This document shows, piece by piece, positions 1-35,823 of a DNA stretch of 64,000 nucleotides (the stretch's first letter is position 1; each line of letters opens with the position of its first letter). A program made the position numbers and the translations under genes. The DNA comes from an uncultured Alphaproteobacteria bacterium. Its GTDB lineage: Bacteria > Pseudomonadota > Alphaproteobacteria > RF32 > CAG-239. The notes under the pieces are model-generated. The model was not told the origin of the DNA, made no database searches, and worked only from the letters and a program-made list of their open reading frames with translations. Location: positions 29,139-93,138 of the forward strand of contig CALXPL010000004.1 of NCBI GenBank assembly GCA_944390275.1, read 5' to 3'.

Positions 1-132
1 CCGGAAGATATTCAAGCCGTAATTTATGATATTTTAAGACATCGTATCATTTTAACGTTTGAAGCACAAGCCGAAGGCGTAAGCACGGATGACGTCATTG
101 CTAATTTAATAAGACAGGTTCCGCTGCCATAA
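1..132 (+). CDS. MoxR-like AAA+ ATPase, C-terminal fragment (the gene starts upstream of the window)
   Basis: Frame 1 reads ...PEDIQAVIYDILRHRIILTFEAQAEGVSTDDVIANLIRQVPLP*, a typical MoxR C-terminus. A DUF58 gene follows it, the classic MoxR–DUF58 pairing. Confidence 0.6.
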   Translation, partial: PEDIQAVIYDILRHRIILTFEAQAEGVSTDDVIANLIRQVPLP

Positions 133-150
133 AGCAAGGGGAAACAGACA

Positions 151-1104
151 ATGAAATTTCGCCTGTTTAAGAGCAAACTATTTGCCAAAACTCCTGAAAT
201 ACAAACGGGAGGAGGTCTTTTTGCAACAACGGAAGAATTAATCGAACAAAAGCGTTATATTGCCTACTTAAAAAATTTTCATCATAAAATGGCCAGCAGT
301 CACCAAGCCGGAGATGTAAAATCGGCATTTAAGGGGAGGGGGATAGAGTTGGAAGAAATTCGCCCCTATAATTACGGAGATGATATAAGGGATATGGATT
401 GGCGAGTTACGGCACGAAAACAGACCCCTTATACACGTCTTTATGCGGAAGAAAAAGACCGAGAGGTATATGCGTTGATAGATTTATCACCGCAAATGGT
501 TTTTGGCACGCGCAAGGAGTTAAAATCGGTTTCAGCCGCCAAAATAGCCGCTTTGTTGGGATGGCTCAGTATGGAAAACAAGGATAGGTTTGGGGTAGGC
601 GTTTATGATGGAGAAAAGATAGAAATAAGCAAGTCGGGTAACAGCCGAGCCAATTTAATCGCAATGTTGAAAAAAATAGCAGCAACCAGCAAAAAGATAA
701 TAGAAAACAAGGTGGTAGAAAAAGAAAGTTTAGCCAAAGCAATAACATTATTAAGCAACCGACTTAAAAATCAGGCGACGGTATTTGTAATCAGCGATTT
801 TGTGCATTTTGATGAAATACAGAAAAAAGCTCTGGCACAGTTGGCCCGTAAGAGTCGCGTTTGGTGTGTAAATATATTTGATGTTCTAGAAGAAAAAGCA
901 CCGGTATCGGGAGAATATACTGCCGCCTCGTTACAAGGACAAAAAGTTTCATTCAATACGACAGACAAAGAATTTGTATCGGCATATGAAAGTTATTTCC
1001 GCAAGAAACGAGAGCAATTAAAATCATTTTGCCATTCATTTGGAATAAGATATGTCGAGATAAGGACGGATTTAGAACTTTATGAGCAACTAAAGGTAGT
1101 TTAG
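151..1104 (+). CDS. DUF58 (vWA-fold) protein, partner of the MoxR ATPase
   Basis: 317-aa ORF. The DIRDMDWRVTARKQTPYTRLY...VYALIDLSPQM motif matches the DUF58 signature. It lies directly downstream of the MoxR fragment. Confidence 0.75.
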   Translation: MKFRLFKSKLFAKTPEIQTGGGLFATTEELIEQKRYIAYLKNFHHKMASSHQAGDVKSAFKGRGIELEEIRPYNYGDDIRDMDWRVTARKQTPYTRLYAEEKDREVYALIDLSPQMVFGTRKELKSVSAAKIAALLGWLSMENKDRFGVGVYDGEKIEISKSGNSRANLIAMLKKIAATSKKIIENKVVEKESLAKAITLLSNRLKNQATVFVISDFVHFDEIQKKALAQLARKSRVWCVNIFDVLEEKAPVSGEYTAASLQGQKVSFNTTDKEFVSAYESYFRKKREQLKSFCHSFGIRYVEIRTDLELYEQLKVV

Positions 1105-1195
1105 AAAATTTGTATCTAAATCTTGACAAAAGAGAGAATAAGTGGTAAAAAGACAAGCATGAATTATTCTGTAACTATAATTTGGGAAGAGTAAA

Positions 1196-2158
1196 ATGGT
1201 AAAATCGAACGATAACAGCTCATATAAAAGAGGACAAGAATTATTGGATCAAGGTTTGTATGAAGAAGCCATACAACAATTTGATGAAGTATTAAAAGAA
1301 CAGCCTGACTCATGGAAGGCCATAAACAGCAAAGGTTTTGCTTATCAAAAGATGAGTAAATATACGGAAGCAGTAGAATGTTTTGACAAAGCCTTGCAGT
1401 TTAATCCGCAATCAGTAGAGGTCTTGAATAACAAAGGCGTTACACTGAGCATGAGAGGTTTGTATAAAGATGCGATATCTTGTTTTGATCAAGCCGTAGC
1501 AGTTGACGGCACCTCATTAGAAGCGTTAAACGGCAAAGCCATAGCTTTACAACATATGTTTTCCTATAAAGAAGCGTTAGATGTTTTGGAACAAGCAATG
1601 AAAATTGACCCGAAACACACGCAGACTCTTCTCAGCATAGCCGTAACGTTGCAGAAATTAAAACAATATGAAAGAGCCATTTCATTTTTCAAAAAAGTAT
1701 TAGCGAATGATAAAACCAACATCAAAGCATGGAACGGTGTTGGTGTTACCTATCAGTTGATGGGAGATAATAATTCCGCGTTGAAATGTTTTACCAAAAT
1801 ATTGAATATAAACAGCCATGAAATACAAGCATGGATAAGCATTGGCTTTGTATATCAAAAGATTGGTAAATTTAATGATGCGTTAAAATGTTATAAGAAA
1901 GCACAAATGGTCATAAATAACCGTTATCATCATAAATTATATGACGGATTGGCCAGCTGCCTTACAAAATTATCTGAATTTGACCAAGCGATAGAAGTTT
2001 ATAAACAAATCTTCCAAAAAGAGGAAGGAAAAAAGAAATGGGATGCGCAAAGGTCAATTAAGTTTGTCAATAAGTTAAAGCGCAAAAAAGCGGTTGGAAC
2101 TTTAACACCTCCGACGGGAGCAAGCTCAACGACAACGGAAGATGCTGGTATAGAGTAA
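1196..2158 (+). CDS. Tetratricopeptide-repeat (TPR) protein, a BatC-like member of the MoxR/DUF58 aerotolerance-type operon
   Basis: 320-aa ORF made of repeated 34-aa units with the TPR W/LG/Y/A/F/A/P pattern (AINSKGFAYQKMSKYTEAVECFDKALQFNP...). It follows the DUF58 gene at short spacing. Confidence 0.75.
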   Translation: MVKSNDNSSYKRGQELLDQGLYEEAIQQFDEVLKEQPDSWKAINSKGFAYQKMSKYTEAVECFDKALQFNPQSVEVLNNKGVTLSMRGLYKDAISCFDQAVAVDGTSLEALNGKAIALQHMFSYKEALDVLEQAMKIDPKHTQTLLSIAVTLQKLKQYERAISFFKKVLANDKTNIKAWNGVGVTYQLMGDNNSALKCFTKILNINSHEIQAWISIGFVYQKIGKFNDALKCYKKAQMVINNRYHHKLYDGLASCLTKLSEFDQAIEVYKQIFQKEEGKKKWDAQRSIKFVNKLKRKKAVGTLTPPTGASSTTTEDAGIE

Positions 2159-2163
2159 GAACA

Positions 2164-2195
2164 AGCCCCTTGTAAAAGCAAGGGGTTTTTGTTTG
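2164..2195 (+). terminator. Rho-independent terminator after the TPR gene
   Basis: agccccttg-taaaag-caaggggtt hairpin followed by ttttgtttg. Confidence 0.6.
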
Positions 2196-2258
2196 ACAAT
2201 TTAAACAAAAAAGACTATAAAAAAACAAATTTTTATTATTAACGCAAAATGAATTATT

Positions 2259-3041
2259 ATGGAATTAAAGTATGTAACATGTTCGGGTGCAAATGAGCAT
2301 ACGAATATTAAAGACATGATTGCTTTGAGTGAACAATTTCCCAAAGTAGAGTTTGGAATACAGGTTTCAGGCAAAAAATGCGGACAAGGCTCGGCAAGAG
2401 AGAGTTGGTTAAAGGAGTTAATTCAAGCGATTAAAAGAGAGCGTAAAAGTATTTTTTTAGCTTTGCATCTCAATCAGGATTGGGTAGAAAATTTCTGTGA
2501 GGGAAGAGTAACGCCGCAACTTTCAACATTTTTAACGGAGAAAGATTGGACAGGAAAACCAATATTTCAGCGAGTTCAACTCAATTTCAAAATAGGACGT
2601 GAAAAAATGCCGCAACTTGAAATGGTTGAAGAAATGATAAAGCGTTATTCCGAGATACGATTTATTTTGTCCGCGAGTGAAGCAAATAAAAACTTTATTC
2701 GAAAACTCTATCATAGAGGGCAGGTGAAATTTGATTGCTTATATGATGAATCTTTTGGAGAAGGGCAGCTGCCTTCGGATAGGAAATATCCTTTATTTGA
2801 TGACGTGTTACAAGGATATGCGGGAGGCTTATCGCCGGAAAATATTGAAAGAGAATTGGAAAAGATATCAGAAAAGCAACCGTATAATGGCAAGTTTTAC
2901 ATTGATGCCGAAGGCAAGCTCAAAGGAGAAAACGGCCGATTATCGCTAGAACGATGTGAACATTTCATACGAAGAGCGATAATATGGGAGCATATCATTA
3001 ATGAGCACAGCTTCTTTGAAGGAAAAAGAATCGTGAAGTAA
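2259..3041 (+). CDS. Hypothetical protein, 260 aa, possibly TIM-barrel-like
   Basis: Long ORF with coding-like composition. The YAGGLSPENI motif faintly recalls PRA isomerase-type barrels. No confident family assignment. Confidence 0.45.
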   Translation: MELKYVTCSGANEHTNIKDMIALSEQFPKVEFGIQVSGKKCGQGSARESWLKELIQAIKRERKSIFLALHLNQDWVENFCEGRVTPQLSTFLTEKDWTGKPIFQRVQLNFKIGREKMPQLEMVEEMIKRYSEIRFILSASEANKNFIRKLYHRGQVKFDCLYDESFGEGQLPSDRKYPLFDDVLQGYAGGLSPENIERELEKISEKQPYNGKFYIDAEGKLKGENGRLSLERCEHFIRRAIIWEHIINEHSFFEGKRIVK

Positions 3042-3054
3042 GTGCAATAAAAAA

Positions 3055-3092
3055 AAGTCCATAATTTGTAAAGCAATTATGGGCTTTTTTGT
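3055..3092 (+). terminator. Rho-independent terminator
   Basis: gtccataatt-tgtaaagc-aattatgggc hairpin followed by tttttt. Confidence 0.55.
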
Positions 3093-3154
3093 TATATAAG
3101 AAAAAAGGGACATAAAAAATGTCCCAATTAGATTTAGCGTTACCGCCGTGTGGT

Positions 3155-3173
3155 TGGTCGGGATGACTGGATT
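3155..3173. repeat. 19-bp copy of the 3' end of tRNA-Pro (tggtcgggatgactggatt); att-like relic at the left edge of the islet
   Basis: Exact match to nt 5781-5799, the 3' end of the tRNA-Pro gene including CCA. Similarity stops abruptly on both sides. Confidence 0.7.
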
Positions 3174-3290
3174 GTCTTGTTCGCAATGCTCACAGCGTCG
3201 TATCGTCGTTCGGGCTTTGCCCTCATCGGCATACTTTCGTCTGCCTCTCCTCCTAGTCGCCAGCTTCCTCGCTGCTTCGAATCAAACGCT

Positions 3291-3348
3291 TCGCGGTCTT
3301 TTAAAACAAAAAAACCGCCATAAAGGCAGTTTTTTGTTTTAATGGTCG
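3291..3348. repeat. 58-bp direct repeat, copy 1 (tcgcggtcttttaaaacaaaaaaaccgccataaaggcagttttttgttttaatggtcg)
   Basis: Identical 58-mer recurs at 5728-5785, abutting and overlapping the tRNA-Pro 3' end. It contains an imperfect hairpin flanked by A- and T-runs. Confidence 0.8.
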
Positions 3349-3470
3349 TGTATAAGGTACGAAAAGAACGACCACCCTTGATATCCGCCCCCATACCCCT
3401 AAAATTTTAAGCATCCGCACCCGTGGTTTGAGATAAAATCAGGGTTGTTTTATTACAATCTTAGAAAGAC

Positions 3471-3508
3471 TTGACATATTCTGTAATAGATAATATAATA
3501 TCTATTAT
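3471..3508 (+). promoter_or_regulatory. Consensus sigma-70 promoter TTGACA-17-TATAAT for hipBA, with an overlapping palindrome ATAATA-tc-TATTAT that is a probable HipB operator
   Basis: ttgaca at 3471-3476, a 17-nt spacer, tataat at 3494-3499. The inverted repeat ataatatctattat at 3495-3508 overlaps the -10 element and lies ~65 nt upstream of hipB. Confidence 0.6.
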
Positions 3509-3571
3509 ATGTGATTTTTGTCATTTGGAGATAATATATTGTCTTTTGTTCTAAAATCAACACAAGAAGTT

Positions 3572-3838
3572 ATGCAAGAGATTGCTGCACGAGTCAAGGC
3601 CATTCGCTTGGAGCAAAATCTTTCTCAGGAAGGTTTATCTTTGCGCTCGGGTGTGAGTTTGGGTAGCTTGAAACGTTTTGAACGCACCGGCGAAATATCG
3701 TTGAAATCTCTAATCGAGATTTCCGTAAGTTTGGGCGTTATGGAAGATTTTGACAAACTGTTTGTTAAAGATACGAATATTGAAAGCCTTTTTAATAAAA
3801 AAGAACCCAAAATCCGCAAAAGAGGGAGCGTCAAATGA
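3572..3838 (+). CDS. hipB: HipB-like XRE-family helix-turn-helix antitoxin
   Basis: 88 aa from ATG 3572 (MQEIAARVKAIRLEQNLSQEGLSLRSGVS...), a Cro/C1-type HTH. The ORF track starts at TTG 3518. The stop overlaps the hipA start (ATGA). Confidence 0.7.
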   Translation: MQEIAARVKAIRLEQNLSQEGLSLRSGVSLGSLKRFERTGEISLKSLIEISVSLGVMEDFDKLFVKDTNIESLFNKKEPKIRKRGSVK

Positions 3839-5016
3839 GATTGAATGTTTATTTGAATAGCTTTGGCAAGCGTAAATATGTCGGAGTTTTGGAAGAGGTC
3901 GGGCATCGCATCTTGTTTGAATATGCACCGGAGTTTATTGCGGAAAGAATAAATATTTCTCCGTTTATGTTGCCGCTTCAATCAGGCGTGTTTGAAGACA
4001 AGAAGCAAACTTTTGACGGTCTGTACGGCTTGTTTAACGATAGTCTGCCTGATGGCTGGGGCTGTTTGCTGCTTGATCGTGCCTTGCAGAAAAAAGGTTT
4101 ATCGTTACAACAAATCACGCCGCTAAAACGTCTATCCATCATCGGTCAAAATGCAATGGGGGCTTTGGAATACGAGCCGATAACCGAACACGAGGACGAG
4201 TTTATTGGCGGAATAGAACTGGATTCTCTTTGTGCCGAAGCCAATCGTATCTTGGAAGGAGAAAGTTCGGAAGTCTTAGAAAAACTCCTAACCTTAAATG
4301 GTTCCTCCGGAGGTGCCAGACCAAAAATCGTGGCTTTGGTTTCCGAAGATAAACAAAAAATTATTCATGGTAATGTGGCCAAAGAAGATTTTTCGCCTTG
4401 GATAATTAAATTCGCCTCTTCATTAGACGGTAAGGATATAGGTGCGCAAGAATATATTTATTCGCTGATTGCCAAGCAAGCCGGCGTCGAAATGCCAGAA
4501 ACATATCTGTTTCCTTCTAAAACTTCGGTTGGACATTTCGGGGTAAAAAGATTTGATAGAAACGGAACTCAAAAAATTCATGTCCATACGGCTTGCGGAT
4601 TGCTCCATGCCAGCCACAGATACGCCAGCATTGATTATTCGGACTTGTTAAAACTGACTTTTATATTAACCAAGGATATCAGGGAAGTGGAAAAAATGGT
4701 GCGCCTGATGATTTTTAATGTTAAATCGGGAAACAAAGATGACCATAGTAAAAACTTCTCATTTTTGCTGGATGAAAATAATAATTGGAAGCTAACGCCG
4801 GCTTATGACTTAACACCTTCGGAAGGGATAAACGGCGAACAAACGGCAATGGTCAATGCAAAAGGTAAAGACATTACAACGCAAGACTTTATCAAAACCG
4901 CTGAACCTTTTGGAATTGCAGCAAAAGAGACCATGGAAATCGTGGAACGAACCGAAGATGCTTTGTCTACCTATCCTAAATACGCCAAAGAATTTGGTGT
5001 AAATAAAAAGGGATAA
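3835..5016 (+). CDS. hipA: HipA-family serine/threonine kinase toxin
   Basis: 393 aa with HipA N-terminal and C-terminal domain signatures (SSGGARPKI..., DDHSKNFSFLL catalytic motif). Translationally coupled to hipB. Confidence 0.85.
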   Translation: MRLNVYLNSFGKRKYVGVLEEVGHRILFEYAPEFIAERINISPFMLPLQSGVFEDKKQTFDGLYGLFNDSLPDGWGCLLLDRALQKKGLSLQQITPLKRLSIIGQNAMGALEYEPITEHEDEFIGGIELDSLCAEANRILEGESSEVLEKLLTLNGSSGGARPKIVALVSEDKQKIIHGNVAKEDFSPWIIKFASSLDGKDIGAQEYIYSLIAKQAGVEMPETYLFPSKTSVGHFGVKRFDRNGTQKIHVHTACGLLHASHRYASIDYSDLLKLTFILTKDIREVEKMVRLMIFNVKSGNKDDHSKNFSFLLDENNNWKLTPAYDLTPSEGINGEQTAMVNAKGKDITTQDFIKTAEPFGIAAKETMEIVERTEDALSTYPKYAKEFGVNKKG

Positions 5017-5413
5017 TGTTCAAAGATATCTTGAATGCTGAAACATCAACAGCATAAAAGCCAACAAATTTGTAAAATACATTTTATAAAAATGTAAAAA
5101 TATACAAAAGTGTAAAATGAATTTTACAAAATAATAGCAAACAAGGATACAACACTCATTAGACGAACTTTGAGTTGAATGTTGTGAAAATGTATATATA
5201 ATTAATGTTAACAACCTTGATATATTGAATTTTAAATAAGAATAATCGGTGTTTGCAAAGACTTATGGATAAAAAAATGACAACTCAAGCAGAAGAATAT
5301 ATAAAACGACTTAGAGATGAATATATTGATAATCAAAAAAGAGGCCAAGAGCGTGATTTGCTTATTCAAGAGAATAATATAGAAAAGGAACAAATAAAAG
5401 GTTAATCCCGAAA

Positions 5414-5641
5414 TTGTTGAAATTTATAGAATTACTCAAAAATTGCGGCTTTGAACTCTTCCGGAAACTCGGGCGAACGATAGAATATTGGCAGGAAGAA
5501 ATCGGGAGAATGTTTCGTTTTACAAGGAGTAACGGTATTACTGAAGGCTTCCACCGGAAAATGAAACTTATTCAACGGCGAGCGTACGGTTTTAGAAATT
5601 TTGAAAACTATCGCTTGCGTGTCCGTATTTTATGTGCTTAA
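5414..5641 (+). pseudogene. ISL3-family transposase, C-terminal remnant only
   Basis: The 75-aa ORF ...NGITEGFHRKMKLIQRRAYGFRNFENYRLRVRILCA matches the conserved C-terminus of ISL3 transposases. No N-terminal part and no inverted repeats were found. Confidence 0.6.
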
Positions 5642-5727
5642 TTTATTTCTACTTTGGTGTTTTGATTATGATATTTTTTTATAATTTTTACTCTCTGCCC
5701 CATACTTTGACGATGAACCGATGAACC

Positions 5728-5785
5728 TCGCGGTCTTTTAAAACAAAAAAACCGCCATAAAGGCAGTTTTTTGTTTTAATGGTCG
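5728..5785. repeat. 58-bp direct repeat, copy 2, fused to the tRNA-Pro 3' end
   Basis: Identical to 3291-3348. Its last 5 nt (ggtcg) belong to the tRNA acceptor end. Confidence 0.8.
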
Positions 5786-5857
5786 GGATGACTGGATTCG
5801 AACCAGCGACCACTTGCACCCCATGCAAATGCGCTACCAGGCTGCGCTACATCCCGA
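5781..5857 (-). tRNA. tRNA-Pro (anticodon GGG)
   Basis: The reverse complement folds as a cloverleaf: acceptor stem CGGGATG/CATCCCG, D-arm GCGC-AGCCTGGTA-GCGC, anticodon arm TTTGC-AT GGG GT-GCAAG, T-arm GCTGG-TTCGAAT-CCAGT, with CCA encoded. Confidence 0.85.
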
Positions 5858-5992
5858 AAACAGATAAGTTATAAAACGATATAAGAAGAAAAGCAAGAAC
5901 TTTTATCAAAAAAAAAGCAAATAAAATATTTATTGCATAATTCAAAAAGAGAATTTAACCTAAAGAAGGGAAGAAATTTCAAGGACAAAGCG

Positions 5993-16558: not shown

Positions 16559-19500
16559 TTAGAACTTGTATCCCAAACCGGCATTGATGGCATAGGCATC
16601 ATCCGTTTCAATATATTTGCTGAATTCGCTGTACAAGTTGAATTGCTTGTAACGGTAGTCTAAGCGGAGGGAGAGGACTGCTCTGTCACGACGAGCATCG
16701 TAAGAGTTGACGAAATAATTGATACCGGCATCCGTCATACGAGCTTTTTGAGCTTGGAAGGGATTAGCCAGTTCATGATAATAAGTACCACCGGCACGTA
16801 AGTTAATTTTTCCTTTTTCACCGAGTTCAATTTCTTTGACAGCATACAACCCGATACCTGTTTCAACAGAAATATTATTTGTTGCATTAATTTCCAAAGC
16901 ACTGTCTTTTTCTTTAATTTTACCTTGGTACATACCCAAGACATTAAATTCAAGAGTTGGTTCAAGTCCAAACCATCCCATATCAAAAGTATGGCGAGCT
17001 TCATTGGTAATACCATAATAGTAGTTAGTAACATCACCCTCATAAGAACCACTGGTAACATGTCTCGTGTAGTCGCCGAATCCCATACCGATACGAGGAA
17101 CGGAAACGAGTTTAGAATTTCCGTATTGGAAGGATAGGGGAGCCAAAAGGTGAACCATAATTTCATCACGAGAGGCCGTGTCATCATCATAATCGCTACT
17201 ATATTTTGTTACCATAGCACCAAGACCATAACGGAAGACATCATTATATTTTTTGTCGATTAAGCCAAAAGCGGAGTGAGCTTGGTCATCATAATCAGCA
17301 ATATAAGCCGTAGCATCTTGTTTGCGACCATAGAAGTCATAACCGGCCATGACGCGAATTTCTTGGTTGTCAGAGTTATTTAAGAGAGTAGCGTTGATTT
17401 GTCTGTCAGCACTCTTGATGACATCGAAGTTTTGTTTTGTAAAGTTTGCAAACAAGTCGAGACCAAATTCACCTTTAATTTCATTAGCCAAGTCAGCATT
17501 TGTTTCGGCATATTTGAGTACATTAAAGACTTGAGAAGATTTTCCGGCTTCATAAGAGGAATCGATTTGATTGAGGAGAGCTCTGTCTTGAATTCCTGAA
17601 CTTGAAGATAAAACGGAATTCAAAGCGACTTTTCGAGCCACGATATTATAATTTTTCAAGCCATCTGTTTCAAAAGTCAAAGATTCATTATTGTTCGTAT
17701 CATCTGTTAGTGTTTCATCGTTTGTTTGAGAAGAAGTTTCTTCGGCATTATCGCTAGGAATCGTAATGTCAGATAAATCGACATCATCTTGGCTTTCTTG
17801 AACAGAGACATCACTGAACCAAGCCGTACCTTTGACTTTAAGATTAGAGATATCGGAAGCGGTTAAAGCATTTTTCAAGACATATTCAGATTGATTACCT
17901 TCATCAAGAGCAGAACCGTCAACGCTTAAATTTCCATCCATGGTTGAGGCAATGAACCGACCATTTTCACCGACATAGACGCCGCTATCATTAAAGGACA
18001 TCGGAGCAGCCATGAGGGACATGGTAACTGGCGCACTATAACTTGTTATTGAGGGCGTTGTTGCAGAAGCAACGGTTCCTTGGTTTAAGATAGAACTTGT
18101 TGAATCAATAGAAAAGATATTGCTTGTTCCGTTATTTCCGGCTGTAGTACCGGAAAATAGAATAGTTCCTTGGTTATCAATTTTAGAGTTATTTGTTGCT
18201 TTCATACCAACAACTTCAGAACCTTTCACATAGATATTACTGGTATTGGTAATAGTACTTGAATTATTAGCTTGCATACCGACAATTTTATTACCGGTAA
18301 CAGATAAAGTACCGCCATTAACTCCGGTTGCTCTATTTTCAACCAAAATACCGATGGTAGAATCACCTTCAACCGTTAAAGCACCATTATTTGTTACTTG
18401 TCCGCCTTTAGCAGCATGCATACCGATAGATCCGGTACCTTTAACGGTCATGCTTGCACCACCGGCATTTGTGAGTTGTCCTCCGGAATTTGAAATCATA
18501 CCCACCGAAGCATTACCGGTAACATTAATTTCAGTTTCATTAGTAGCGGATCCTGTATTAATGCTGATACCGGTACCGGATGCGCTGGTAACCGTAATTG
18601 ATCCTTTATTAAAGACAGAGCCACCTGCGATTTCAATACCTGTTCCGCTAGCACCCGACGCAGTAACTGTAATAGTACCGCTATTTGTAACACTGACGGT
18701 ACCGGTTTCGCCTAAGATACCGGTTGTATTACTTTCACCGTTCATGGTAATTGTACCCCCATCATTTTTGAGAGTACCTGATTGAGCATAAAGACCGGCA
18801 GCATCCGAACCATTGAGTGTAATATTACCGGAGTTTGTACCGCTACCGGAAACGACATGAATAGCGTGGAAACCATTATTATTATTCGTAATATCACCAA
18901 GGTTTTTAGCAACACCGTTTTTAACATAAAGAGCAGAGGAGCCGATAGTGTTAATTGTCGCACCGGAAGAGTTAACGATAGTACCACCGTTATCGGCATA
19001 CATCGCATAAGAGTTAGCATTCTGAACATCCAAAATTCCGTTATTCGTAGCGGTACCGGCACCATTAGCGAGCATAGCATAAGCATTTGCTCCACTAACA
19101 CTGATATTTCCGGAAGTTTCGTTAGTAGCGGTACCGGTTCCTTGAATGACCATACCCGCAGCATTATCACCGGTTAAGCTAATAGTTTTGTTATTAGTGA
19201 TAGTACCTTGAACGACGCGCATAGCATGGATACCTTCTTGAGCCAAAGAGATAACCCCGTTATTTATACCGGTACCGGAGTTGACAAGCATAGCGACTTC
19301 GCCGATAGATTGGAGAGAAGCTCCGTCTTCATTAATGATAGTACCTCCGTCAGCTTGCATAGCAACTGCCGTTGCATTATTAGCGATAATCTTTCCATAG
19401 TTAGAAGCCGTACCGCTCGTAGCTTTCATACCGATAGAGTTAGCACCGTTAACAATAATGACGCTGTTTTCGAGAGCATTTGAAGCCGTAGCAGAACCAT

Positions 19501-22500
19501 TTGTTTCCATACCGATAGAATTTTCACCGTTAAGAGTAATACGACCTTGGTTTTCGATACTACCGGCTTCCACGTACATAGCTTTGAAATTACCATTATC
19601 GTTTTCAATAATACCTTCGTTGACGCCTTGTCCGTTGAGAACATACATACCAATGGAACCATCGGTAATTAACTGTCCGGTAGAGGAGTTTTTAATAATA
19701 CCGCCATCGGCATACATAGCCACAGAAGTAGCATCGTTTACTTGAATTGTTCCGCTGTTAATAGCGGTACCTTGAGTTTGGCTATTACCAAGGATTACGC
19801 CGAGAGCGACCATACCTTGAGAGTTTGGACCGTTGACGGTAATAACGCCGTCTAATTCATTGGTAACGGTAGAATTACCGCCGGCTTCCATACCGATAGA
19901 AGAATCACCGCTTGTTGTAATATTAGCATTATTTGTAAGTTGAGCATCGCCTTCACCTTGCATAGCAATAGAATTTGCTCCAGAAACATTGATGATTTTA
20001 TTATTGATAGCGGTACCGGAACGAGCATACATAGCAATAATGCCTTCTTTCGTAAAGGAAAGAGTTCCTTGGTTTTCAGCATTACCGGAATTGACATACA
20101 TGGCATAAATGCTGTTGTTTCCATCGGAGATGGTAATTGTTCCGTTTAGACCATTAACAATTGTTCCGCCATCTGCATACATACCATAAGAATCATCAGC
20201 ATTGATAGTAATATTTTTATTATTTGTTGCCGTTCCTTGAGTTGCTTGCATACCATAAGATTCATCACCGGTAACATCAATATCTCCGCTGTTATCGATA
20301 GTTCCGGAACCATCAGCAATCATACCGGAAGAGCCAGTACTCATAACATTAATAGTTCCTTTGTTACGAGCTTGACCGCTACCGGTAACTTTCATACCGA
20401 TAGATCCGGTAGAGGAGGCTTCTAAATTGATCGTACCTTCATTAAGAGCACCGATAATACTTGTACTTGACGTACCGCCATCTTGAGTTTGGATACCAAC
20501 AGAATTTTGTCCTTGGATAGTAACGGTAGCATTTGTTTTATTGATAATATCGGCAGAAACGCTGTGCATACCGATAGAGCTGTCAGCAGCCATTGTTATT
20601 GAATTATTGTTAGTGCCGCTTCCGTCGGTTGTAAAAATACCATAAGAGTTTTCACCGTCAACAGAGATAGTTCCATCATTCCAAGCCGTAGCCGCACCAA
20701 GCATTTGCATACCGTAAGAATTATCACCGGTAATAGTAATGGTAGCCCCTTGATGGTTAATTGTGGCGGCGGTTTCTTTGTCGCTAGCACCGGAGCCATT
20801 ACCGCCGATACCGACACCGCCGTAGTTAAGGATAATTTGGCTATAGTTATCAAGAGTACCACCCGTTCCTAAATTCATACCATAACCAAACATATCATTA
20901 AGAGTAATAATACCGTAGTTTTTCGCTTCACCTTCATCAAGATACATACCGTAGGCAATATTTTCCGTCGTAGGATATTGACGTCCGGTAATTGTAATAT
21001 TTCCGTTGTTTGTCATACGACTATAAACACCGGTAGAGCCATACATACCATAATTAAGTTTTCCGTTATGATCTGAACTCATAATAATGTCTTTATTATT
21101 AATAATTTGAGCATTTTCGGCAGTAACACTCATACCGATAGAATTGTAACCGGTAACATTGATAGTTCCGTCATTAACGGCATAGTTTTGAGATTCCATA
21201 CCAGTTGACATAGAACCTGTAATATTAATTTGTCCTTGGTTTGAGGCTTGTCCGAGACCGGATTTCATACCGACACCGGTATCATCAATGGTAATAACAC
21301 CGGAACCATAGTTAATAGCATTTCCGCTTGATGTTGACATACCGACACCGCCGGCTTGCATATTAATTTGTCCGTAGTTTTGGTTTAATCCGGATTCGGT
21401 ATGCATACCATTACCGCGTTTAGTAAAGACGATAGATGAGTTTTGGCTGTTAAGGATGTTGGCTTCATTACCCCAAATACCGAAAGAACCGGTATCGACA
21501 TCAATACCTTGAGATAAATCGCCCGTGGTATTAATGTAGAGATTAGCATTATTAATAACACTTCCTTTTTCAGCTTTAATACCATAAGAAGTTTTATTTT
21601 GAGCTTGTTGGGAGTTATTCAAAGTAATATCGGCATTATTTGTTACAATACCATTTTCTGTAGAAATACCATATTGTTCATTAGCATTGTTAATGGTAAT
21701 TGTTTGATTATTAGTGATAGAGCCGACACCGCCTTTAAGACCATAAGCAAGGTTAGACAAAGAGCCGGTATTTCCGTTAATGGTAATGGCAGCATCATTA
21801 ATAATGTTACCAGCGAGGGCTTCGATGGCATAAGCTTCATTTTTATTTGAAATAGTAATTTCAGCGTTATTGTCAACATCGCCTTGAGTTGACTTAATAG
21901 CATAGGCTTTATCATCAAGAGCCCCGGTGGTATTTCCCATAGTAATTGTAGCATTGTTGACAATGTAACCGTTTTCGGTAGAAAGACCATAGCTTTCTTT
22001 AGCATTATTGATAACAATAGCAGCATTATTGTTGATGTCGGTAACGCCGCCTTTAATACCATAAGCGATGGTAGAAGTGATATTGTTGTTATTTTGGTTA
22101 ATAGATATAGTACCGGTATTATTAACGGTACCAGCGAGGGCTTCAATAGCATAAGCCTCGCTTTTATAATCAATATTAATATTTCCGGAGTTCTCAACAT
22201 CACCTTGAGTTGATTTAATGGCATAGGCTTTTGTATCAAGAGCACCATTGTTGTTACTTAAAGTGATATTTGCCGTGTTAGAAATATCACCGTTTTCCGT
22301 AGAAATAGCGTAAGATTCCGTAGCATTATTAATTGTAATAGCCGCATCATTGGAAATATTGCTGTTTCCGCCCTTAATACCATAAGCCAATTTTGATGTG
22401 AGGCTAGTATTTTGGTTAATAGAGATAGTTCCGGTATTATCAACATTTCCGGCAAGAGCTTCAATGGCATAGGTTTCATCTTTGTTAGAGATAGAGATAG

Positions 22501-25198
22501 AAGCAGAGTTATTGACATCACCTTGAGTTGATTTAATAGCATAGGCTTTTGTATCAAGAGCACCATTATTGTTACTTAAAGTGATGTTTGCCGTGTTAGA
22601 AATATCACCGTTTTCTGTCGAAATGGCATAAGATTCCGTAGCATTATTAATGGTAATATTTCCGCTATTAATAATATCACTGTTACCGCCTTTAATGCCA
22701 TAAGCCAAAGCAGAAGTTAAATTTGTTGAAGGATTAATAGAGATAGTTGCAGAATTGTTGACGGTACCGGCGAGGGCTTCAATACCATAAGCATTGTTTT
22801 TGTTAGAAATGGTAAGAGCCGCATTATTTGTAACATCACCTTGAGTTGATTTGATGGCATAGGCTTCGTTATCTAAAGCACCTTTAGAGTTAGTTAAAGA
22901 AATTTGACCATTATTAAGAATAGTACCGTTTTCAATAACGATTCCGTAACTATTGTAGTTATTTGTAATGGAAAGAGTATTATTATTGTTAAGAGTTCCT
23001 TTATTAGCTTTAATAGCAAAAGCAGTTGTTCCGTTGGCACTTGTATTGTTGGTAATTGTAATGGTTCCGTTGTTGTTTACGGTTCCGTCTTCAAGATAGA
23101 TACCGATTGTTTCCGCCGAATTAGAATCGGTAGAACTGTCATCACCGGTAGAGCTATCACCGCTGCTTCCAGAAGAAGAAACATCATTAGTCAAAGCATT
23201 ATCAATAGTGATGCTACTGTTATTATTCGTATTGATAGTACCTTTTTGAGACATACGAATACCGGTTCCGCCGCCTTGAATAGTAATTTCATTATTATTT
23301 TCAATACCGCCGGTATCATGTAAGATTCCGGTACCTTGTTGTTGCAAAGTAATTGTACCATTGTTGATAGACAAACCACCGTTATAAGAAGCGATACCAA
23401 AACCGTTTTTGCTATCAATAGCAATAGTTCCGTTATTTGTCATACTGGGATTATCCTGATCGATTTCAGGATTTTTACCATCGCCGCGCACGGCAATCAT
23501 ACCGTAAGAACCGATACCGCCATCAATACTGATGTATTTATCATTTATAAGAACTCCGTTTCGAATAGAGAACATTCCGGCAACACTTTCGGTAACAGTA
23601 TTGTCTTCACTACCGGTATCAGTAATAGACACTTGGATAGTACCGGAGTTGGTAGCAGTAGTATTTCCATCGGCACGGATACCGATAATACCGCTTAAAC
23701 CTTGAAGGAACATATTATTTCCGTCGCTATCGGTTGCGGAATAAGTACCGTTATCACCGGTTAAAGCGACATCGAGAGCAATATTTCCGTTATTATTAAT
23801 AACAACGTTTCCGGCACGAGAGAAGAGGTAGGAGCCATTTAGAAAAGAGTCTTCGACATAGCTTCCCATACCGACAAGACCTGTACTGATTTCGCGATTA
23901 TCGGCACTTGCGCTAAAAGAAATATTACCGTTATTGGTAAGAGTAGTAGTTGAGAAAGTACCTTTTTCTTGATTAATGATTTGCCCGCGCATACCAATCA
24001 TGGAACCGGCGATACTATCGGCAGATTTTGCCGTACCGGAAATAGTTCCGTTATTGATTATGGTTGAATTAGTATCGGCATACATACCGACAATAGAGTG
24101 ATTATCTTTATCTCCATGGAAAGACATAGAGATAAGGCCGTTTGCATGGTTGGTAGCCGTAGAGCTTTGGCTTGCAATCATAGCCAAGGTACCGTTTTTA
24201 GCATCAATTTTGATAGTATCGTAATTATTTGCGGTACTATTTTTCAAGGCAACCAAAGCAGCCGTATTATCTTTAAGGGTAATAAGGTAATTTTTGCTGG
24301 CATCATAACGAGAAGAGTCGGGACTATAACCGTTATTGACGGTTGAGCGATTGACCCCGCGCATAGCGACTTGAATGTATTGGCTGTAATCGAGAGCACT
24401 ATAACGAAAATCAATTAAATCTGTTAGAGGTTGAGAGGTAGCCCCATCATCTCCGGAAACTTTAATAGAAGAGTTGTTGCTGATAACCCACCCCTCAAGT
24501 TTACCATCTCCGAAGTTATAATCAGGGAAGGCGCCATTAGTTAAAGAACCGCCGAGTTGTTCATCAAGAATAACGCGATTATAATTTGAAGTTTCGGGGG
24601 AGCTGGGAGTCGCTGTACCGACAGTTCCACCCAAGCTGTAGTCGGTTTCATTATAAGAGAGCGGAAAGAAGAAATCGTTTCCACCGCCACCGCCGCCGCC
24701 CATGACGGCAACGAGAATACCACCGAGCAGGATAGCTCCGCCGATAAGCCAAGCAGTTGGTGAGAGCAGATAATCTTCTTCGCCGAGATAAGCATAGGCT
24801 TCACGAGAATTTGCGGTAGTAGGAACCACACGTCTTGATTGCATAAAGGAGTCGCGATTTCTGGCCATAAGGTTTTGCATACAAGGGTGATTCGGATTTG
24901 CACCGGCAGCGCGTAAAGTATTGTAGGCAGTATAATTTCTTTGTTTTATCGCATGACAAAGAGCCGTATTTCCGTTACGATCGAGGGTATCAATATTCAA
25001 GCCGCGTTGGATAGCGGCACGCAAAGCGCGTACATTTCCCATAGTAGCAAGAGTGTACATTTGCGCGTTACTGATAGGGGGAAGATAGGCAAGTGCGGGA
25101 GAACAGATAGATAAAACGAAACCTATTGCCATAAGGGCAATAAGTTTGTTTTGTTTAAAAAAGTTCAACATCCGCATATTAAAATTAAGCCAATACAA
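16559..25198 (-). CDS. Giant type Va autotransporter (2,879 aa): signal peptide, ankyrin-like N-terminal module, hydrophobic segment plus Gly run, Asn/Thr/Gly-rich beta-helical passenger with tandem repeats, C-terminal beta-barrel translocator
   Basis: Signal peptide MRMLNFFKQNKLIALMAIGFVLSICSPALA. GNTALCHAIKQRNYTAYNTLRAAGANPN is an ankyrin repeat. The passenger contains hundreds of NNGTI/GxGI pectate-lyase-like repeats. The last ~300 aa form an autotransporter beta-domain ending ...AINAGLGYKF. Confidence 0.85.
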   Translation of the reverse strand: MYWLNFNMRMLNFFKQNKLIALMAIGFVLSICSPALAYLPPISNAQMYTLATMGNVRALRAAIQRGLNIDTLDRNGNTALCHAIKQRNYTAYNTLRAAGANPNHPCMQNLMARNRDSFMQSRRVVPTTANSREAYAYLGEEDYLLSPTAWLIGGAILLGGILVAVMGGGGGGGNDFFFPLSYNETDYSLGGTVGTATPSSPETSNYNRVILDEQLGGSLTNGAFPDYNFGDGKLEGWVISNNSSIKVSGDDGATSQPLTDLIDFRYSALDYSQYIQVAMRGVNRSTVNNGYSPDSSRYDASKNYLITLKDNTAALVALKNSTANNYDTIKIDAKNGTLAMIASQSSTATNHANGLISMSFHGDKDNHSIVGMYADTNSTIINNGTISGTAKSADSIAGSMIGMRGQIINQEKGTFSTTTLTNNGNISFSASADNREISTGLVGMGSYVEDSFLNGSYLFSRAGNVVINNNGNIALDVALTGDNGTYSATDSDGNNMFLQGLSGIIGIRADGNTTATNSGTIQVSITDTGSEDNTVTESVAGMFSIRNGVLINDKYISIDGGIGSYGMIAVRGDGKNPEIDQDNPSMTNNGTIAIDSKNGFGIASYNGGLSINNGTITLQQQGTGILHDTGGIENNNEITIQGGGTGIRMSQKGTINTNNNSSITIDNALTNDVSSSGSSGDSSTGDDSSTDSNSAETIGIYLEDGTVNNNGTITITNNTSANGTTAFAIKANKGTLNNNNTLSITNNYNSYGIVIENGTILNNGQISLTNSKGALDNEAYAIKSTQGDVTNNAALTISNKNNAYGIEALAGTVNNSATISINPSTNLTSALAYGIKGGNSDIINSGNITINNATESYAISTENGDISNTANITLSNNNGALDTKAYAIKSTQGDVNNSASISISNKDETYAIEALAGNVDNTGTISINQNTSLTSKLAYGIKGGNSNISNDAAITINNATESYAISTENGDISNTANITLSNNNGALDTKAYAIKSTQGDVENSGNINIDYKSEAYAIEALAGTVNNTGTISINQNNNNITSTIAYGIKGGVTDINNNAAIVINNAKESYGLSTENGYIVNNATITMGNTTGALDDKAYAIKSTQGDVDNNAEITISNKNEAYAIEALAGNIINDAAITINGNTGSLSNLAYGLKGGVGSITNNQTITINNANEQYGISTENGIVTNNADITLNNSQQAQNKTSYGIKAEKGSVINNANLYINTTGDLSQGIDVDTGSFGIWGNEANILNSQNSSIVFTKRGNGMHTESGLNQNYGQINMQAGGVGMSTSSGNAINYGSGVITIDDTGVGMKSGLGQASNQGQINITGSMSTGMESQNYAVNDGTINVTGYNSIGMSVTAENAQIINNKDIIMSSDHNGKLNYGMYGSTGVYSRMTNNGNITITGRQYPTTENIAYGMYLDEGEAKNYGIITLNDMFGYGMNLGTGGTLDNYSQIILNYGGVGIGGNGSGASDKETAATINHQGATITITGDNSYGMQMLGAATAWNDGTISVDGENSYGIFTTDGSGTNNNSITMAADSSIGMHSVSADIINKTNATVTIQGQNSVGIQTQDGGTSSTSIIGALNEGTINLEASSTGSIGMKVTGSGQARNKGTINVMSTGSSGMIADGSGTIDNSGDIDVTGDESYGMQATQGTATNNKNITINADDSYGMYADGGTIVNGLNGTITISDGNNSIYAMYVNSGNAENQGTLSFTKEGIIAMYARSGTAINNKIINVSGANSIAMQGEGDAQLTNNANITTSGDSSIGMEAGGNSTVTNELDGVITVNGPNSQGMVALGVILGNSQTQGTAINSGTIQVNDATSVAMYADGGIIKNSSTGQLITDGSIGMYVLNGQGVNEGIIENDNGNFKAMYVEAGSIENQGRITLNGENSIGMETNGSATASNALENSVIIVNGANSIGMKATSGTASNYGKIIANNATAVAMQADGGTIINEDGASLQSIGEVAMLVNSGTGINNGVISLAQEGIHAMRVVQGTITNNKTISLTGDNAAGMVIQGTGTATNETSGNISVSGANAYAMLANGAGTATNNGILDVQNANSYAMYADNGGTIVNSSGATINTIGSSALYVKNGVAKNLGDITNNNNGFHAIHVVSGSGTNSGNITLNGSDAAGLYAQSGTLKNDGGTITMNGESNTTGILGETGTVSVTNSGTITVTASGASGTGIEIAGGSVFNKGSITVTSASGTGISINTGSATNETEINVTGNASVGMISNSGGQLTNAGGASMTVKGTGSIGMHAAKGGQVTNNGALTVEGDSTIGILVENRATGVNGGTLSVTGNKIVGMQANNSSTITNTSNIYVKGSEVVGMKATNNSKIDNQGTILFSGTTAGNNGTSNIFSIDSTSSILNQGTVASATTPSITSYSAPVTMSLMAAPMSFNDSGVYVGENGRFIASTMDGNLSVDGSALDEGNQSEYVLKNALTASDISNLKVKGTAWFSDVSVQESQDDVDLSDITIPSDNAEETSSQTNDETLTDDTNNNESLTFETDGLKNYNIVARKVALNSVLSSSSGIQDRALLNQIDSSYEAGKSSQVFNVLKYAETNADLANEIKGEFGLDLFANFTKQNFDVIKSADRQINATLLNNSDNQEIRVMAGYDFYGRKQDATAYIADYDDQAHSAFGLIDKKYNDVFRYGLGAMVTKYSSDYDDDTASRDEIMVHLLAPLSFQYGNSKLVSVPRIGMGFGDYTRHVTSGSYEGDVTNYYYGITNEARHTFDMGWFGLEPTLEFNVLGMYQGKIKEKDSALEINATNNISVETGIGLYAVKEIELGEKGKINLRAGGTYYHELANPFQAQKARMTDAGINYFVNSYDARRDRAVLSLRLDYRYKQFNLYSEFSKYIETDDAYAINAGLGYKF
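21600..23030 (-). repeat. In-frame tandem array of ~4.5 copies of a 318-bp (106-aa) unit inside the autotransporter passenger
   Basis: Protein residues ~773-1200 repeat GALDxKAYAIKSTQGDV...ITINNATESYAISTENGDISNTANITLSNNN. Alternate-frame ORFs 21643-22248 and 22258-22566 begin with the identical peptide MVLLIQKPM...LNQLKVM, which shows near-identical DNA copies offset by 318 nt. Confidence 0.8.
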
Positions 25199-34794: not shown

Positions 34795-35823
34795 CTAATC
34801 GAGGCAATAAACATAATTGGTATTGAACGGACATTTTACGGATTTTCCCTCACAGCTTTGTTGGGCATAACCCAAAACGGAACAATCTTGGCTTAGCGTA
34901 CAGAAATCAAAGCCGGGACAAACACAAGCTCCTTGTGAAGCGTTCCATGTAAAACCACTCGCACATTTACATTTTGAATATTTGTTGTCGCAAGAATTCC
35001 CATCTCCTCCCGAATACCCCGTGCCGGAGCAAGAATATTTGAAAGAAGTGGCGCAAACGCATTTCTTTTGGGTATCACTCCATTCATAATTATTGGGGCA
35101 GTTGCATTTTTGATAATAAGTTCCGCTATCATCGGAACAGGTACTTCCGCTTCCGCCTTGTGTTCCACAGGTTGGGGCTGAAACATATTTTTGCGGGTCG
35201 CATTTGATTTTATATTTTTTACCATCACATGATTGACATTCGCCATTGCTCACATACCCCGACGGAATAGAGGTATATTGATAATCAGAACAGAGATTAC
35301 AACATTCTTTATATTTACCGCCGCAAGAAGTTCCGACACCTTGTTCGCCGAGAGCCGTATCACAAACTTGATTATATTCGGAAGAACATTCACAATCGGA
35401 ATGATAAGAACTGTCATAAGGGCAATAAGAGGTAGGGGAGCTTCCATCGGGACAAGGCGTGTTGGTATAACCAGCTTGTTTACAAAGTTCCTCAGGAGTG
35501 CCGTGGTCATCGGGATTTCCTCCGCCGCCTCCACCGTCAGGAGTTTCCGTATTACCGAATTTATCCGCTCCACAATTTCCCGCATCGGTTATAAAACACA
35601 CCGAAGCAATTTGCACACCGTTATTTGTTCTTTTCGCAAAAAGCTGTGATGATAAGTCAAGTCCGTGAAGAGTATGGCGTATGTATGTGTGATGTATGTG
35701 TAAAGTGGGAATGCCAGACTTGAGGAGTGAAGAATCATCCTCAAAAGACGCATAAGTTACATTTCCGCTGTCAACAAATAAGCTGACGGCAGACAACAAG
35801 AGTACTTTTGAAAATTGTTTCAT
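34795..35823 (-). CDS. Cysteine-rich secreted protein, long form (multi-module EGF-like). Family member 1a
   Basis: Start taken at MKQFSKVLLLSAVSLFVDSGNVTYA (aaggagga RBS). The ORF track extends upstream to 35964. ~40 Cys in conserved spacing (VCFITDAGNC...GKYKECCNLC...CNCPNNYEW...CKCASG...CPFNTNYVYCLD). ~80% identical to 62504-63487. Confidence 0.6.
   Translation of the reverse strand: MKQFSKVLLLSAVSLFVDSGNVTYASFEDDSSLLKSGIPTLHIHHTYIRHTLHGLDLSSQLFAKRTNNGVQIASVCFITDAGNCGADKFGNTETPDGGGGGGNPDDHGTPEELCKQAGYTNTPCPDGSSPTSYCPYDSSYHSDCECSSEYNQVCDTALGEQGVGTSCGGKYKECCNLCSDYQYTSIPSGYVSNGECQSCDGKKYKIKCDPQKYVSAPTCGTQGGSGSTCSDDSGTYYQKCNCPNNYEWSDTQKKCVCATSFKYSCSGTGYSGGDGNSCDNKYSKCKCASGFTWNASQGACVCPGFDFCTLSQDCSVLGYAQQSCEGKSVKCPFNTNYVYCLD
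34930..35322. repeat. ~400-bp near-identical segment shared, in inverted orientation, with 62951-63356 (the central parts of the two long Cys-rich genes)
   Basis: Identical protein runs (YTSIPSGYVSNGECQSC.GKKYKIKCDPQKYVSA; CGTQGGSGSTCSDDSGTYYQKCNCPNNYEWSDTQKKCVC). Identical out-of-frame peptides too (VEHKAEAEVPVPMIAELIIKNATAPII in ORFs 34893-35246 and 63096-63374), which requires nucleotide identity. Confidence 0.7.

Follow-up and report, generated by a model that had tools for sequence, protein, structure and literature searches.

In this study, we analysed a 64-kb stretch of DNA (hereafter the window, the whole stretch under analysis) from an uncultured low-GC alphaproteobacterium of gut-type metagenomes, whose closest relatives in GTDB share ~50% identity in a left-flank protein. 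The subject is a small islet beside the tRNA-Pro(GGG) gene of this window, which carries the toxin–antitoxin genes hipB and hipA between repeated copies of the tRNA 3' end (Table 1). ARAGORN found this gene as the single tRNA in the window and reported no tmRNA. The foreign DNA begins right at the CCA end of the tRNA, and the tRNA gene itself remains intact. We consider it probable that the 3' end of tRNA-Pro(GGG) is a recombination hot spot at which cassettes without a recombinase gene have been stacked in two layers, an older mini-cassette (layer 1, 3155-3348) and a younger cargo with hipBA (layer 2, 3349-5727).

Table 1. Features of the tRNA-Pro(GGG) islet, in window coordinates.
Feature	Position	Strand	Basis or remark
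T0, native terminator hairpin (GGGACATTTTTTATGTCCC and a T-run); expected after the tRNA where the site is empty	3107-3125	minus	30 nt beyond the displaced 19-bp tRNA end
DR19, displaced copy of tRNA positions 58-76 (AATCCAGTCATCCCGACCA), outer att-type repeat	3155-3173	minus	exact repeat of 5780-5798
Y, 117-nt GC-rich structured module	3174-3290	minus	covariance model, RNAalifold
Y hairpin H3	~3212-3222		
Y hairpin H2 (GAAA loop)	~3228-3245		
Y hairpin H1 (built from T-arm-like sequence)	~3256-3281		
Left 58-bp copy: T1' terminator-type hairpin and CGACCA	3291-3348		stem-loop 3309-3335; CGACCA 3343-3348
Distal end of the cargo and hipBA control region	3349-3517	plus	junction TATACA/CGACCA at 3349/3348; promoter 3471-3499; palindrome 3484-3507
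hipB, antitoxin and repressor (predicted)	3518-3838	plus	Pfam HTH_3, E 7e-7
hipA, HipA-family kinase toxin (predicted), intact	3835-5016	plus	Pfam Couple_hipA and HipA_C, E 4e-49
AT-rich upstream region of tmtA	5017-5276	plus	GC 0.26
N-terminal stump of Tiamat (TmtA)-like defence gene	5277-5441	plus	called ORF 5277-5405 (~42 codons); homology to ~5441
C-terminal stump of ISL3 transposase, fused to the tmtA stump by deletion	5414-5641	plus	DDE_Tnp_ISL3 positions 173-240 of 240, E 1e-22
Putative right inverted repeat of ISL3 (to 5719) and GATGAACC (5720-5727)	5693-5727	plus	placed by eye, not by tool alignment
Right 58-bp copy: T1 terminator of the tRNA and last 6 nt of the tRNA	5728-5785		stem-loop 5746-5772
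tRNA-Pro(GGG), intact	5780-5856	minus	ARAGORN; Rfam tRNA, 60.5 bits; 77 nt identical in L025-L027

Two exact direct repeats frame the islet, as the original prediction had noticed. The outer one is the 19-bp sequence TGGTCGGGATGACTGGATT, found at 3155-3173 and 5780-5798, which equals tRNA positions 58-76 in 19/19 nt and comprises AAU (the last 3 nt of the T-loop), the 3' strands of the T-stem and acceptor stem, and ACCA. The other one is a 58-bp sequence (TCGCGGTC...AATGGTCG) at 3291-3348 and 5728-5785, composed of CGACCA, the last 6 nt of the tRNA, and 52 nt of downstream sequence with the terminator hairpin of the tRNA (T1); its tRNA-side edge falls within the acceptor stem. Even when up to 3 mismatches were allowed, the 58-mer had just two copies and the 19-mer no third copy in the window, and 0/100 shuffles gave a match for either of them. 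Pfam searches agreed with the prediction that hipB, hipA and an ISL3 transposase stump, and no integrase, lie between the repeats. A tRNA-Pro(GGG) gene on the minus strand was likewise supported by ARAGORN and Rfam, but its predicted coordinates (5781-5857) were off by one, the actual ones being 5780-5856.

The 58-bp repeat is the exact breaking point of several metagenome contigs (the end of L005 is at 3348 and the start of L009 at 5731; L-numbers are the labels of the fetched contigs or loci used in our comparisons), which could raise the suspicion of a chance match or an assembly artefact. However, k-mer assemblers are expected to break at a repeat of 58 bp, the shuffles gave neither repeat, and a 2952-bp stretch (3041-5992) spanning the whole region is 100% identical in at least five contigs, which were assembled independently from different samples. 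Therefore, we do not regard the region as an artefact, and we give this explanation next to no probability.

The distal part of the islet, layer 1, is a unit of 194 bp. It is made up of the terminator hairpin T1', the 117-nt GC-rich module Y and the 19-bp repeat. At least seven related lineages from gut and rumen have a unit of ~190 bp directly 3' of tRNA-Pro(GGG). Units of this kind contain no ORF, and their 19-20-bp repeats are intact. The nearest related species, which was reached via the phosphodiesterase of the right flank (P0214, 63% amino acid identity), has an identical 77-nt tRNA-Pro(GGG) in the same place. In the empty alleles of this species (L025/L078 and L087), the native terminator comes straight after the tRNA. 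The filled allele L026/L079 carries a precise insert of 190-191 bp between 20-24-bp repeats of the tRNA 3' end, with flanks that are otherwise near-identical, and the filled allele L027/L080 carries an insert of equal size and position whose sequence is clearly different. In each insert, a terminator hairpin is followed by ~117 nt of GC-rich sequence and then by the repeat. The GC-rich part of L026 is homologous to window 3174-3290 (78% over 132 columns), and the hairpin of L027 is homologous to T1 of the window. The same position as T0 of the window is held by native terminators in L025, L026, L027, L036 and L038. These results demonstrate an insertion polymorphism of the mini-cassette in the related species.

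The unit (T1, Y and repeat) also follows tRNA-Pro(GGG) in L033, L035-L043 and L045, where, as in L026 and L027, a 19-bp-type repeat bounds it, and it closes a larger island in L017. A pattern scan of JGI metagenomes yielded nine loci beyond those of the nearest species, in all of which the unit is directly 3' of tRNA-Pro(GGG), and the unit is absent in the closely related species L029/L030. Public samples from human gut and rumen contain empty, filled and tandem alleles side by side. We also observed that the contigs of several species (the starts of L081-L086, and L005, L009-L011 and L024) end in or beside tRNA-Pro(GGG), which fits the co-existence of several alleles of the site within single samples. 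Scans of viral contigs gave 0 matches for Y patterns, and those for 19-mers hit mostly phage tRNA-Pro genes or long attP-type copies, apart from one informative prophage with a large serine recombinase (LSR), which is described below.

The 13 distinct units that we gathered (interiors of ~155-176 nt) were used to build a covariance model and an RNAalifold alignment. The model scored the window copy at 105 bits over 3155-3300 and recovered every other unit, and elsewhere in ~560 kb of fetched sequence it gave only weak matches to tRNA-Pro genes, so that the Y matches adjoin tRNA-Pro(GGG) only. RNAalifold found three hairpins with 16 pairs, of which 8 had compensatory changes on both sides. In the alignment, 94% of cells were paired compared with 79% after shuffling, and the covariation scores were 0.40 and 0.16, respectively (0/500 shuffles reached 0.40); when the partners were slid, the score was 0.07 or less. 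H1 has ~10 bp; H2 has the form GGCRG...YGCC with a loop of GAAA, GGAA or GGGA in most units; H3 is free in sequence, and its hairpin is always kept. The G-U pairs in Y favour the tRNA-sense strand. Y is under structural constraint. This structure is visible only when units are compared: Y folded alone gave z-scores of -0.3 and 0.0 for the two strands, that is, no single-sequence signal. The GC content of Y is ~0.48, against ~0.36 in its neighbourhood.

The fold of Y is linked in sequence to the tRNA. The 3' strand of H1, GGNGGTTCGAC, equals the 5' strand of the T-stem plus most of the T-loop, and it tracks the T-stem variant of the tRNA of each host (GCTGG, GGAGG or GGTGG). The same strand (GGNGG), which in H1 pairs with an upstream CCNCC, is also complementary to the CCNCU that opens the 19-bp repeat (97% of cells paired, covariation 0.42), and thus it has two mutually exclusive partners. 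On either side of Y stands a terminator hairpin, T1 on one and the native one on the other, and inspection of the unit sequences by eye showed no conserved promoter from T1 to H1. Searches of the window region and seven other unit-bearing loci gave no match of Y to an Rfam 15 family; at permissive thresholds (E <= 1), all non-tRNA matches were below the gathering score and none covered Y. Because there was no ARAGORN tmRNA, no significant non-tRNA Rfam match and no associated protein gene beside the units, we set aside a permuted tmRNA, a group I/II intron fragment, a retron ncRNA, an IS200/IS605 or TnpB omega-RNA-type end and an IS110 bridge RNA, whose defining features Y does not have. We take the resemblance of Y to guide-carrying RNAs as no more than a lead. 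Some minimum-energy folds (L039, L038 and L017) showed an acceptor-stem-like helix that joins the leader after T1 to the repeat, but it was inconsistent among units and was dropped.

Layer 2 starts with the control region of hipBA. The promoter upstream of hipB (TTGACA-17-TATAAT) matches the sigma-70 consensus at 12/12 positions and overlaps a 24-bp palindrome, TAATAGATAATA/TAATATCTATTA, and the two look like the textbook promoter and operator of an autoregulated toxin–antitoxin system. The HTH antitoxin gene lies upstream and overlaps hipA by 4 nt (3835-3838), and both the N-terminal coupling domain and the C-terminal domain of HipA are present.

The DNA beyond hipA, which the original prediction took for ~400 bp of AT-rich spacer, is really an upstream region of ~260 bp (5017-5276) and ~42 codons (5277-5405) of a truncated Tiamat-like gene, tmtA. 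In the sister contig L014, an ORF that begins at this start codon extends for at least 242 aa and has the motif ELLQNADDA; the length is a lower bound, as the contig ends there. The ORF matches the PADLOC TmtA profile PDLC03964 (E 5e-73, profile positions 7-235 of 1538). Compared with a full-length TmtA protein of ~1300-1800 aa, the window copy is a pseudogene stump of ~42-55 codons. In both the window and the sister contig L015, tmtA homology ends near 5441 and gives way to the C-terminal part of an ISL3 transposase. This junction is a deletion joint inside both genes, with which most of the Tiamat gene was lost. The ISL3 stump is no part of the integration machinery; it marks this deletion.

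The ISL3 stump is 76% identical at the nucleotide level to ISL3 copies on plasmids of Legionella adelaidensis, and its end was placed by eye against the Legionella ISL3 inverted repeats, GGCTCT...AAGGGGGCAG. The sequence at 5720-5727 repeats the last 8 nt of the ISL3 inverted repeat and abuts the 58-bp repeat. A complete ISL3 with a full DDE transposase, two inverted repeats and an 8-bp target duplication was not found; the window holds no left end, and we treat the sequence as a remnant. BLAST of 3100-5860 against phages and plasmids hit only tRNA-Pro genes and the Legionella plasmid copies of ISL3, and no related island.

Parts of this cargo were also found in other genomes. The upstream region and first codons of tmtA align with L017 at 84% (window 5154-5443) and with L021 at 76% (window 5084-5443). 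In L017, a tmtA pseudogene stands directly beside the unit, followed by a type I restriction-modification system, without hipBA, and in L021 a 3' remnant of hipA lies upstream of tmtA in a different genomic context. The hipBA-tmtA module has therefore been exchanged among genomes, and in several of these it is in decay. As an observation in its own right, tmtA at 9486-10438 of L017, which belongs to another alphaproteobacterial metagenome-assembled genome (MAG; GCA_017935485.1), is split by frameshift into ORFs of 173 and 145 aa, and its neighbours are a RhuM-family gene and the type I restriction-modification system. This tmtA pseudogene is found in two different left-hand contexts, that of L017 and that of L021 (L019-L022).

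The age of the cargo was estimated from a sister lineage (contigs L014-L016, ~98% nucleotide identity to the window), which has the same left junction. This lineage is present in the samples SAMEA6814532 and ERR4096625, and the organism of the window in SAMEA6814680, -682, -683 and -684 and ERR4096270. Between the window and L014, there are ~58 differences over 1-3296 (1.8%), including 4 events in Y and T1' (among them a 3-nt indel, a 1-nt indel and a change of GG to AA at 3295-3296 in the left 58-bp copy), and 3 differences in the 2031 nt of 3297-5327. The cargo is thus ~12-fold less diverged from the sister lineage than the flanks. In hipB there is no nucleotide difference and in hipA one synonymous difference in 1182 nt, compared with 14-19 differences each per ~800-960 nt in three flank genes. 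This shows that layer 2 is younger than the mini-cassette. The right junction of the sister lineage was not reached, the sole contig found being 1.5 kb long and starting inside the tRNA. Separately, in the start of tmtA (window 5328-5441 against L014 10140-10252), near-identity drops abruptly to ~80% at ~5328, whereas L015 stays window-like; this shift is a putative point of recombination between two alleles of tmtA.

None of the related species examined has hipBA at the tRNA-Pro(GGG) locus, which, with 3 differences in 2031 nt against ~1.8% in the flanks, means that hipBA was inserted here and is not ancestral. Nor is the 58-bp repeat a dispersed REP-like repeat, as it has two copies in 64 kb and the Y model matches only at tRNA-Pro(GGG) in ~560 kb. 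Since neither of these two objections holds, the idea of an insertion stands. What the original prediction had seen as the remnant of site-specific integration is upheld as far as insertions at the tRNA 3' end are concerned, because in the nearest related species the 19-20-bp tRNA repeat bounds a precise ~190-bp insert and other strains have clean empty sites; the part that fell is the single decayed island, in whose place there are two layers. A scan of GTDB genomes with the left-flank protein gave just two matches of ~50% identity. Both are in MAGs of uncultured Alphaproteobacteria and show neither synteny nor a tRNA.

Stacking at this site can be seen directly in relatives. In L041, two tandem units, of which the outer one has a decayed repeat, are followed by a 620-bp GNAT cassette that ends with TATGCA/CGACCA and then by the native terminator. 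The cargo of the window ends in the same way, with TATACA/CGACCA followed by T1'. In L045, the unit is followed by a 2.5-kb type II restriction-modification cassette, which is bounded by a second, 18-bp tRNA repeat. No recombinase gene was found between 3155 and 5857 or in ten other ORFs of the window that were scanned, and the restriction-modification cassette of L045, the GNAT cassette of L041 and the mini-units are all without one as well. The earlier view that the mobility genes had eroded is therefore not supported: given that other cassettes at the site also lack a recombinase gene, recombination in trans is at least as likely, and we believe that a recombinase probably acted in trans.

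A candidate for such an enzyme exists in the clade. The 36-kb IMG/VR prophage IMGVR_UViG_3300045988_181565 encodes a terminase, a primase, a repressor, a Bro-like protein and an LSR of 515 aa with Resolvase and Recombinase domains, and the LSR gene and the tRNA-Pro(GGG) gene of L036/L038-type hosts are convergent, the former abutting the 3' end of the latter. This gene running into the tRNA 3' end indicates that at least one recombinase in the clade uses this end. In the prophage contig (L077, 10001-11548) and in L061, the LSR ORF continues into the reverse complement of tRNA-Pro(GGG), and the C-terminal residues ...WSGREDSNL... of the enzyme are encoded by the T-arm of the tRNA. From this arrangement, the attP of the prophage probably lies inside the 3' end of the recombinase gene. 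A 19-bp identity block at the T-loop is typical of tyrosine integrases that target the T-loop. The enzyme for the 19-bp T-loop repeat is thus possibly a tyrosine integrase, and the CGACCA/58-bp junction was possibly made by an LSR or by homologous recombination.

Based on the above, we propose the following course of events. Layer 1 would have entered by site-specific recombination within the segment from the T-loop to CCA. The mini-cassette would have given the tRNA a replacement 3' end, and the original end would have been displaced outward to 3155-3173, beside the native terminator; the T1' hairpin of layer 1 would then have ended the tRNA transcript. Newer cassettes would sit closer to the tRNA than older ones. 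Layer 2 would be a younger defence or addiction cargo (hipBA and tmtA) placed between the CCA end of the tRNA and T1', and flanked by the 58-bp duplication of CGACCA and T1. ISL3 would have inserted later, and a deletion would have joined tmtA at codon ~55 to the final ~70 transposase codons and removed most of tmtA together with whatever lay beyond. hipBA may have persisted through addiction or a defence benefit. If the two 58-bp copies recombined, the cargo would be lost, and what remained would be exactly the mini-unit that is seen alone in relatives.

The origin of the right 58-bp copy is where this proposal leaves room, and two readings remain. In reading (a), the cargo entered the junction between the tRNA and T1 of a pre-existing unit, with 58 bp of identity, by site-specific or homologous recombination. 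In reading (b), a second like unit was inserted beside the tRNA after the cargo had arrived at the CGACCA end, and it was cut back to CGACCA and T1 by the ISL3 insertion and deletion, which removed its Y, its repeat and the proximal cargo, so that the 58-bp repeat is the leftover of two tandem mini-cassettes. The tandem units of L041 and the position of the IS end, at a distance of 0-8 bp from the inner edge of the right copy (5728), favour reading (b), and it also agrees with a cargo ending TAT(A/G)CA/CGACCA having been found independently in L041 and with the use of this tRNA end by an LSR phage in a relative. On the other hand, it needs four steps, and if GATGAACC is the 8-bp target duplication of ISL3, what follows the right T1 in tRNA orientation (GGTTCATC) is unlike the start of Y (AGCGTTTG); in that case no Y ever came after it, and reading (a) is favoured. 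Overall, we hold the tandem leftover for a serious but rather unlikely explanation of the repeat.

That the whole islet is one island bounded by the 19-bp repeats (3155-5798), which lost its integrase and whose 58-bp repeat reflects a second like integration, would agree with the exact, att-shaped 19-bp repeats, the lack of a recombinase gene inside and the evident decay of tmtA and ISL3 to stumps. However, the distal 194 bp are self-contained and occur alone at the same size in many relatives, their structure is conserved instead of decaying, and they diverge from the sister lineage at core level while the hipBA part is ~12-fold less diverged, which points to different ages. In addition, the inner junction retains only CGACCA (6 nt) of the tRNA, whereas a second like event should have left the 19-nt core. 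We therefore find a single island improbable. Slightly less improbable, and still unlikely, is that the unit of T1, Y and repeat is an old, vertically inherited small RNA gene that mimics the T-arm and the acceptor 3' half of a tRNA, and which was lost in places by recombination between the 19-bp repeats. The compensatory changes in three hairpins would suit this, as would the complementarity of the GGNGG in Y to the CCNCU of the repeat, the tracking of the host T-stem variant, and the fact that the unit is always at this one locus. Yet the L026 and L027 units, which come from one species and have near-identical flanks, were only partly alignable by MAFFT, with extensive differences in T1 and Y; the unit is a mosaic, the Y of the window resembling that of L026 and its T1 that of L027; tandem copies exist (L041); Y stands between terminators with no promoter evident; and closely related species are without the unit (L029/L030). 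If the small RNA gene were real, a discrete tRNA-sense transcript of ~140 nt ending in ...CCCGACCA would be expected.

Several points also weigh against the two-layer model that we prefer. No integrase or recombinase gene was found beside any unit in the relatives, as in the islet and the ten other window ORFs, and the fetched loci, the viral contigs and the nine JGI loci yielded no full-length autonomous element with Y. For the mini-cassette, the relatives offered the empty tRNA-Pro site that had been looked for, but the window's own species gave no empty or cargo-less allele: all 19 + 3 contigs carry hipBA or break at the repeat, and look-ups of the exact flank proteins returned same-species contigs that were 100% identical in every case. 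The 58-bp identity is unlike the product of a simple LSR event or a short-core event. The conservation of the Y fold would be unusual for integrase arm sites, and Y, placed between terminators without a conserved promoter, may act as RNA or as folded or duplex DNA. Finally, if GATGAACC is a target duplication of ISL3, the right T1 never preceded a Y, and otherwise the repeat may once have been longer.

With these points in mind, our best estimate is that the mini-cassette is a non-autonomous integrative cassette moved in trans, with the vertically inherited, tRNA-linked small RNA as the main alternative. We further speculated, quite tentatively and with the odds against the proposal as a whole, that the unit is an undescribed non-autonomous integrative cassette that targets the T-loop of tRNA-Pro(GGG) specifically. 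In this proposal, folded Y, as RNA or single-stranded DNA, would be a cis-acting part for recombination or target recognition, the T-arm-like strand that follows the host would be the target-matching segment, and the unit would be a landing pad for defence cargo without a recombinase gene, such as hipBA-Tiamat or restriction-modification systems.

Cassettes without a recombinase gene are known from other systems. In staphylococci, SCC and psi-SCC arrays at rlmH (orfX), and elsewhere integrative mobile elements exploiting Xer recombination (IMEX) at dif, have short direct repeats of a gene 3' end or of dif, stack in tandem and use a recombinase in trans, and CTX-type IMEX use a folded single-stranded attP; they differ from our locus in target, recombinases (CcrAB and XerCD) and hosts. 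Studies have shown that elements can accrete at one att site, and that integrase-less cis-mobilizable elements (CIMEs) keep attL and attR (PMC5704250), and that newcomers push older elements outward at tRNA-linked islands (doi 10.1101/2020.12.28.424599). Our locus fits both of these published patterns. As in the CIMEs related to ICEs (integrative and conjugative elements) and IMEs (integrative mobilizable elements) of Streptococcus, its att repeats copy the tRNA 3' end, integrase and transfer genes are absent, elements stack in tandem, and mobilisation by a related recombinase is presumed (PMC5704250); the mini-cassette keeps its attL- and attR-type ends without integration or transfer genes in the same way. 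In contrast, CIMEs are described as ICEs or IMEs in decay, kilobases in size and irregular in content (PMC5704250), whereas the interior of our unit is a constant ~170 bp with compensated hairpins, recurs across genera and has no autonomous parent that we could find. The tycheposons of Prochlorococcus (doi 10.1101/2020.12.28.424599) are similarly tRNA-linked, with repeated integration at one site, newcomers that push older elements outward, scattered partial tRNAs and defence or niche cargo. Unlike our locus, they encode a tyrosine (rarely a large serine) recombinase of their own as well as replication functions, and they have no described counterpart of the structured Y module.

As for the cargo, hipBA resembles type II modules in its HTH_3 antitoxin gene overlapping the HipA kinase gene and in its consensus promoter overlapping a palindrome. 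It differs from a typical hipBA in its short HipA (393 aa), known here from sequence, and in its place on a young, horizontally exchanged segment beside a Tiamat gene. Likewise, the 242-aa N-terminal part in L014 matches the single-gene anti-phage system Tiamat (PDLC03964), and the window keeps the same start but as a pseudogene stump. The hipBA islet is, in this respect, a routine case of one more small tRNA-linked island with an addiction module. We believe that the mini-cassette family is the interesting part, being gene-less, constant in size, bound to one tRNA and spread across genera of poorly known gut Alphaproteobacteria. It is hard to explain as debris and points to a non-autonomous integrative element with a structured cis-acting module or to a new tRNA-linked small RNA. 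Either reading, if true, would help explain how defence genes build up at tRNA hot spots without a visible integrase.

Some further observations were made in the relatives and in the window. In the related species, L025/L078 carries at 3722-4756 a gene for a 344-aa reverse transcriptase (RVT_1), ~4-6 kb beyond the tRNA. The gene is flanked by direct repeats of ~110 bp (L025 1366-1475 and 3063-3172) that are 85-90% identical and 1697 bp apart, and its neighbours are DUF2201, unannotated genes and a pair of small resolvase genes; the region may represent a further defence island or be of a retron/DRT-like kind. Just past the UvrD gene of L014, positions 154-533 are 93% identical to a part (window 35551-35923) of a 389-aa ORF at 34795-35964, for which no Pfam match was found, and a 70-bp piece of the L014 stretch also matches window 62677-62747. 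Judging from these copies, the sequence related to the 389-aa ORF looks like a repeated or mobile gene. Lastly, a single ORF of 2879 aa occupies 16559-25198 on the minus strand of the window.

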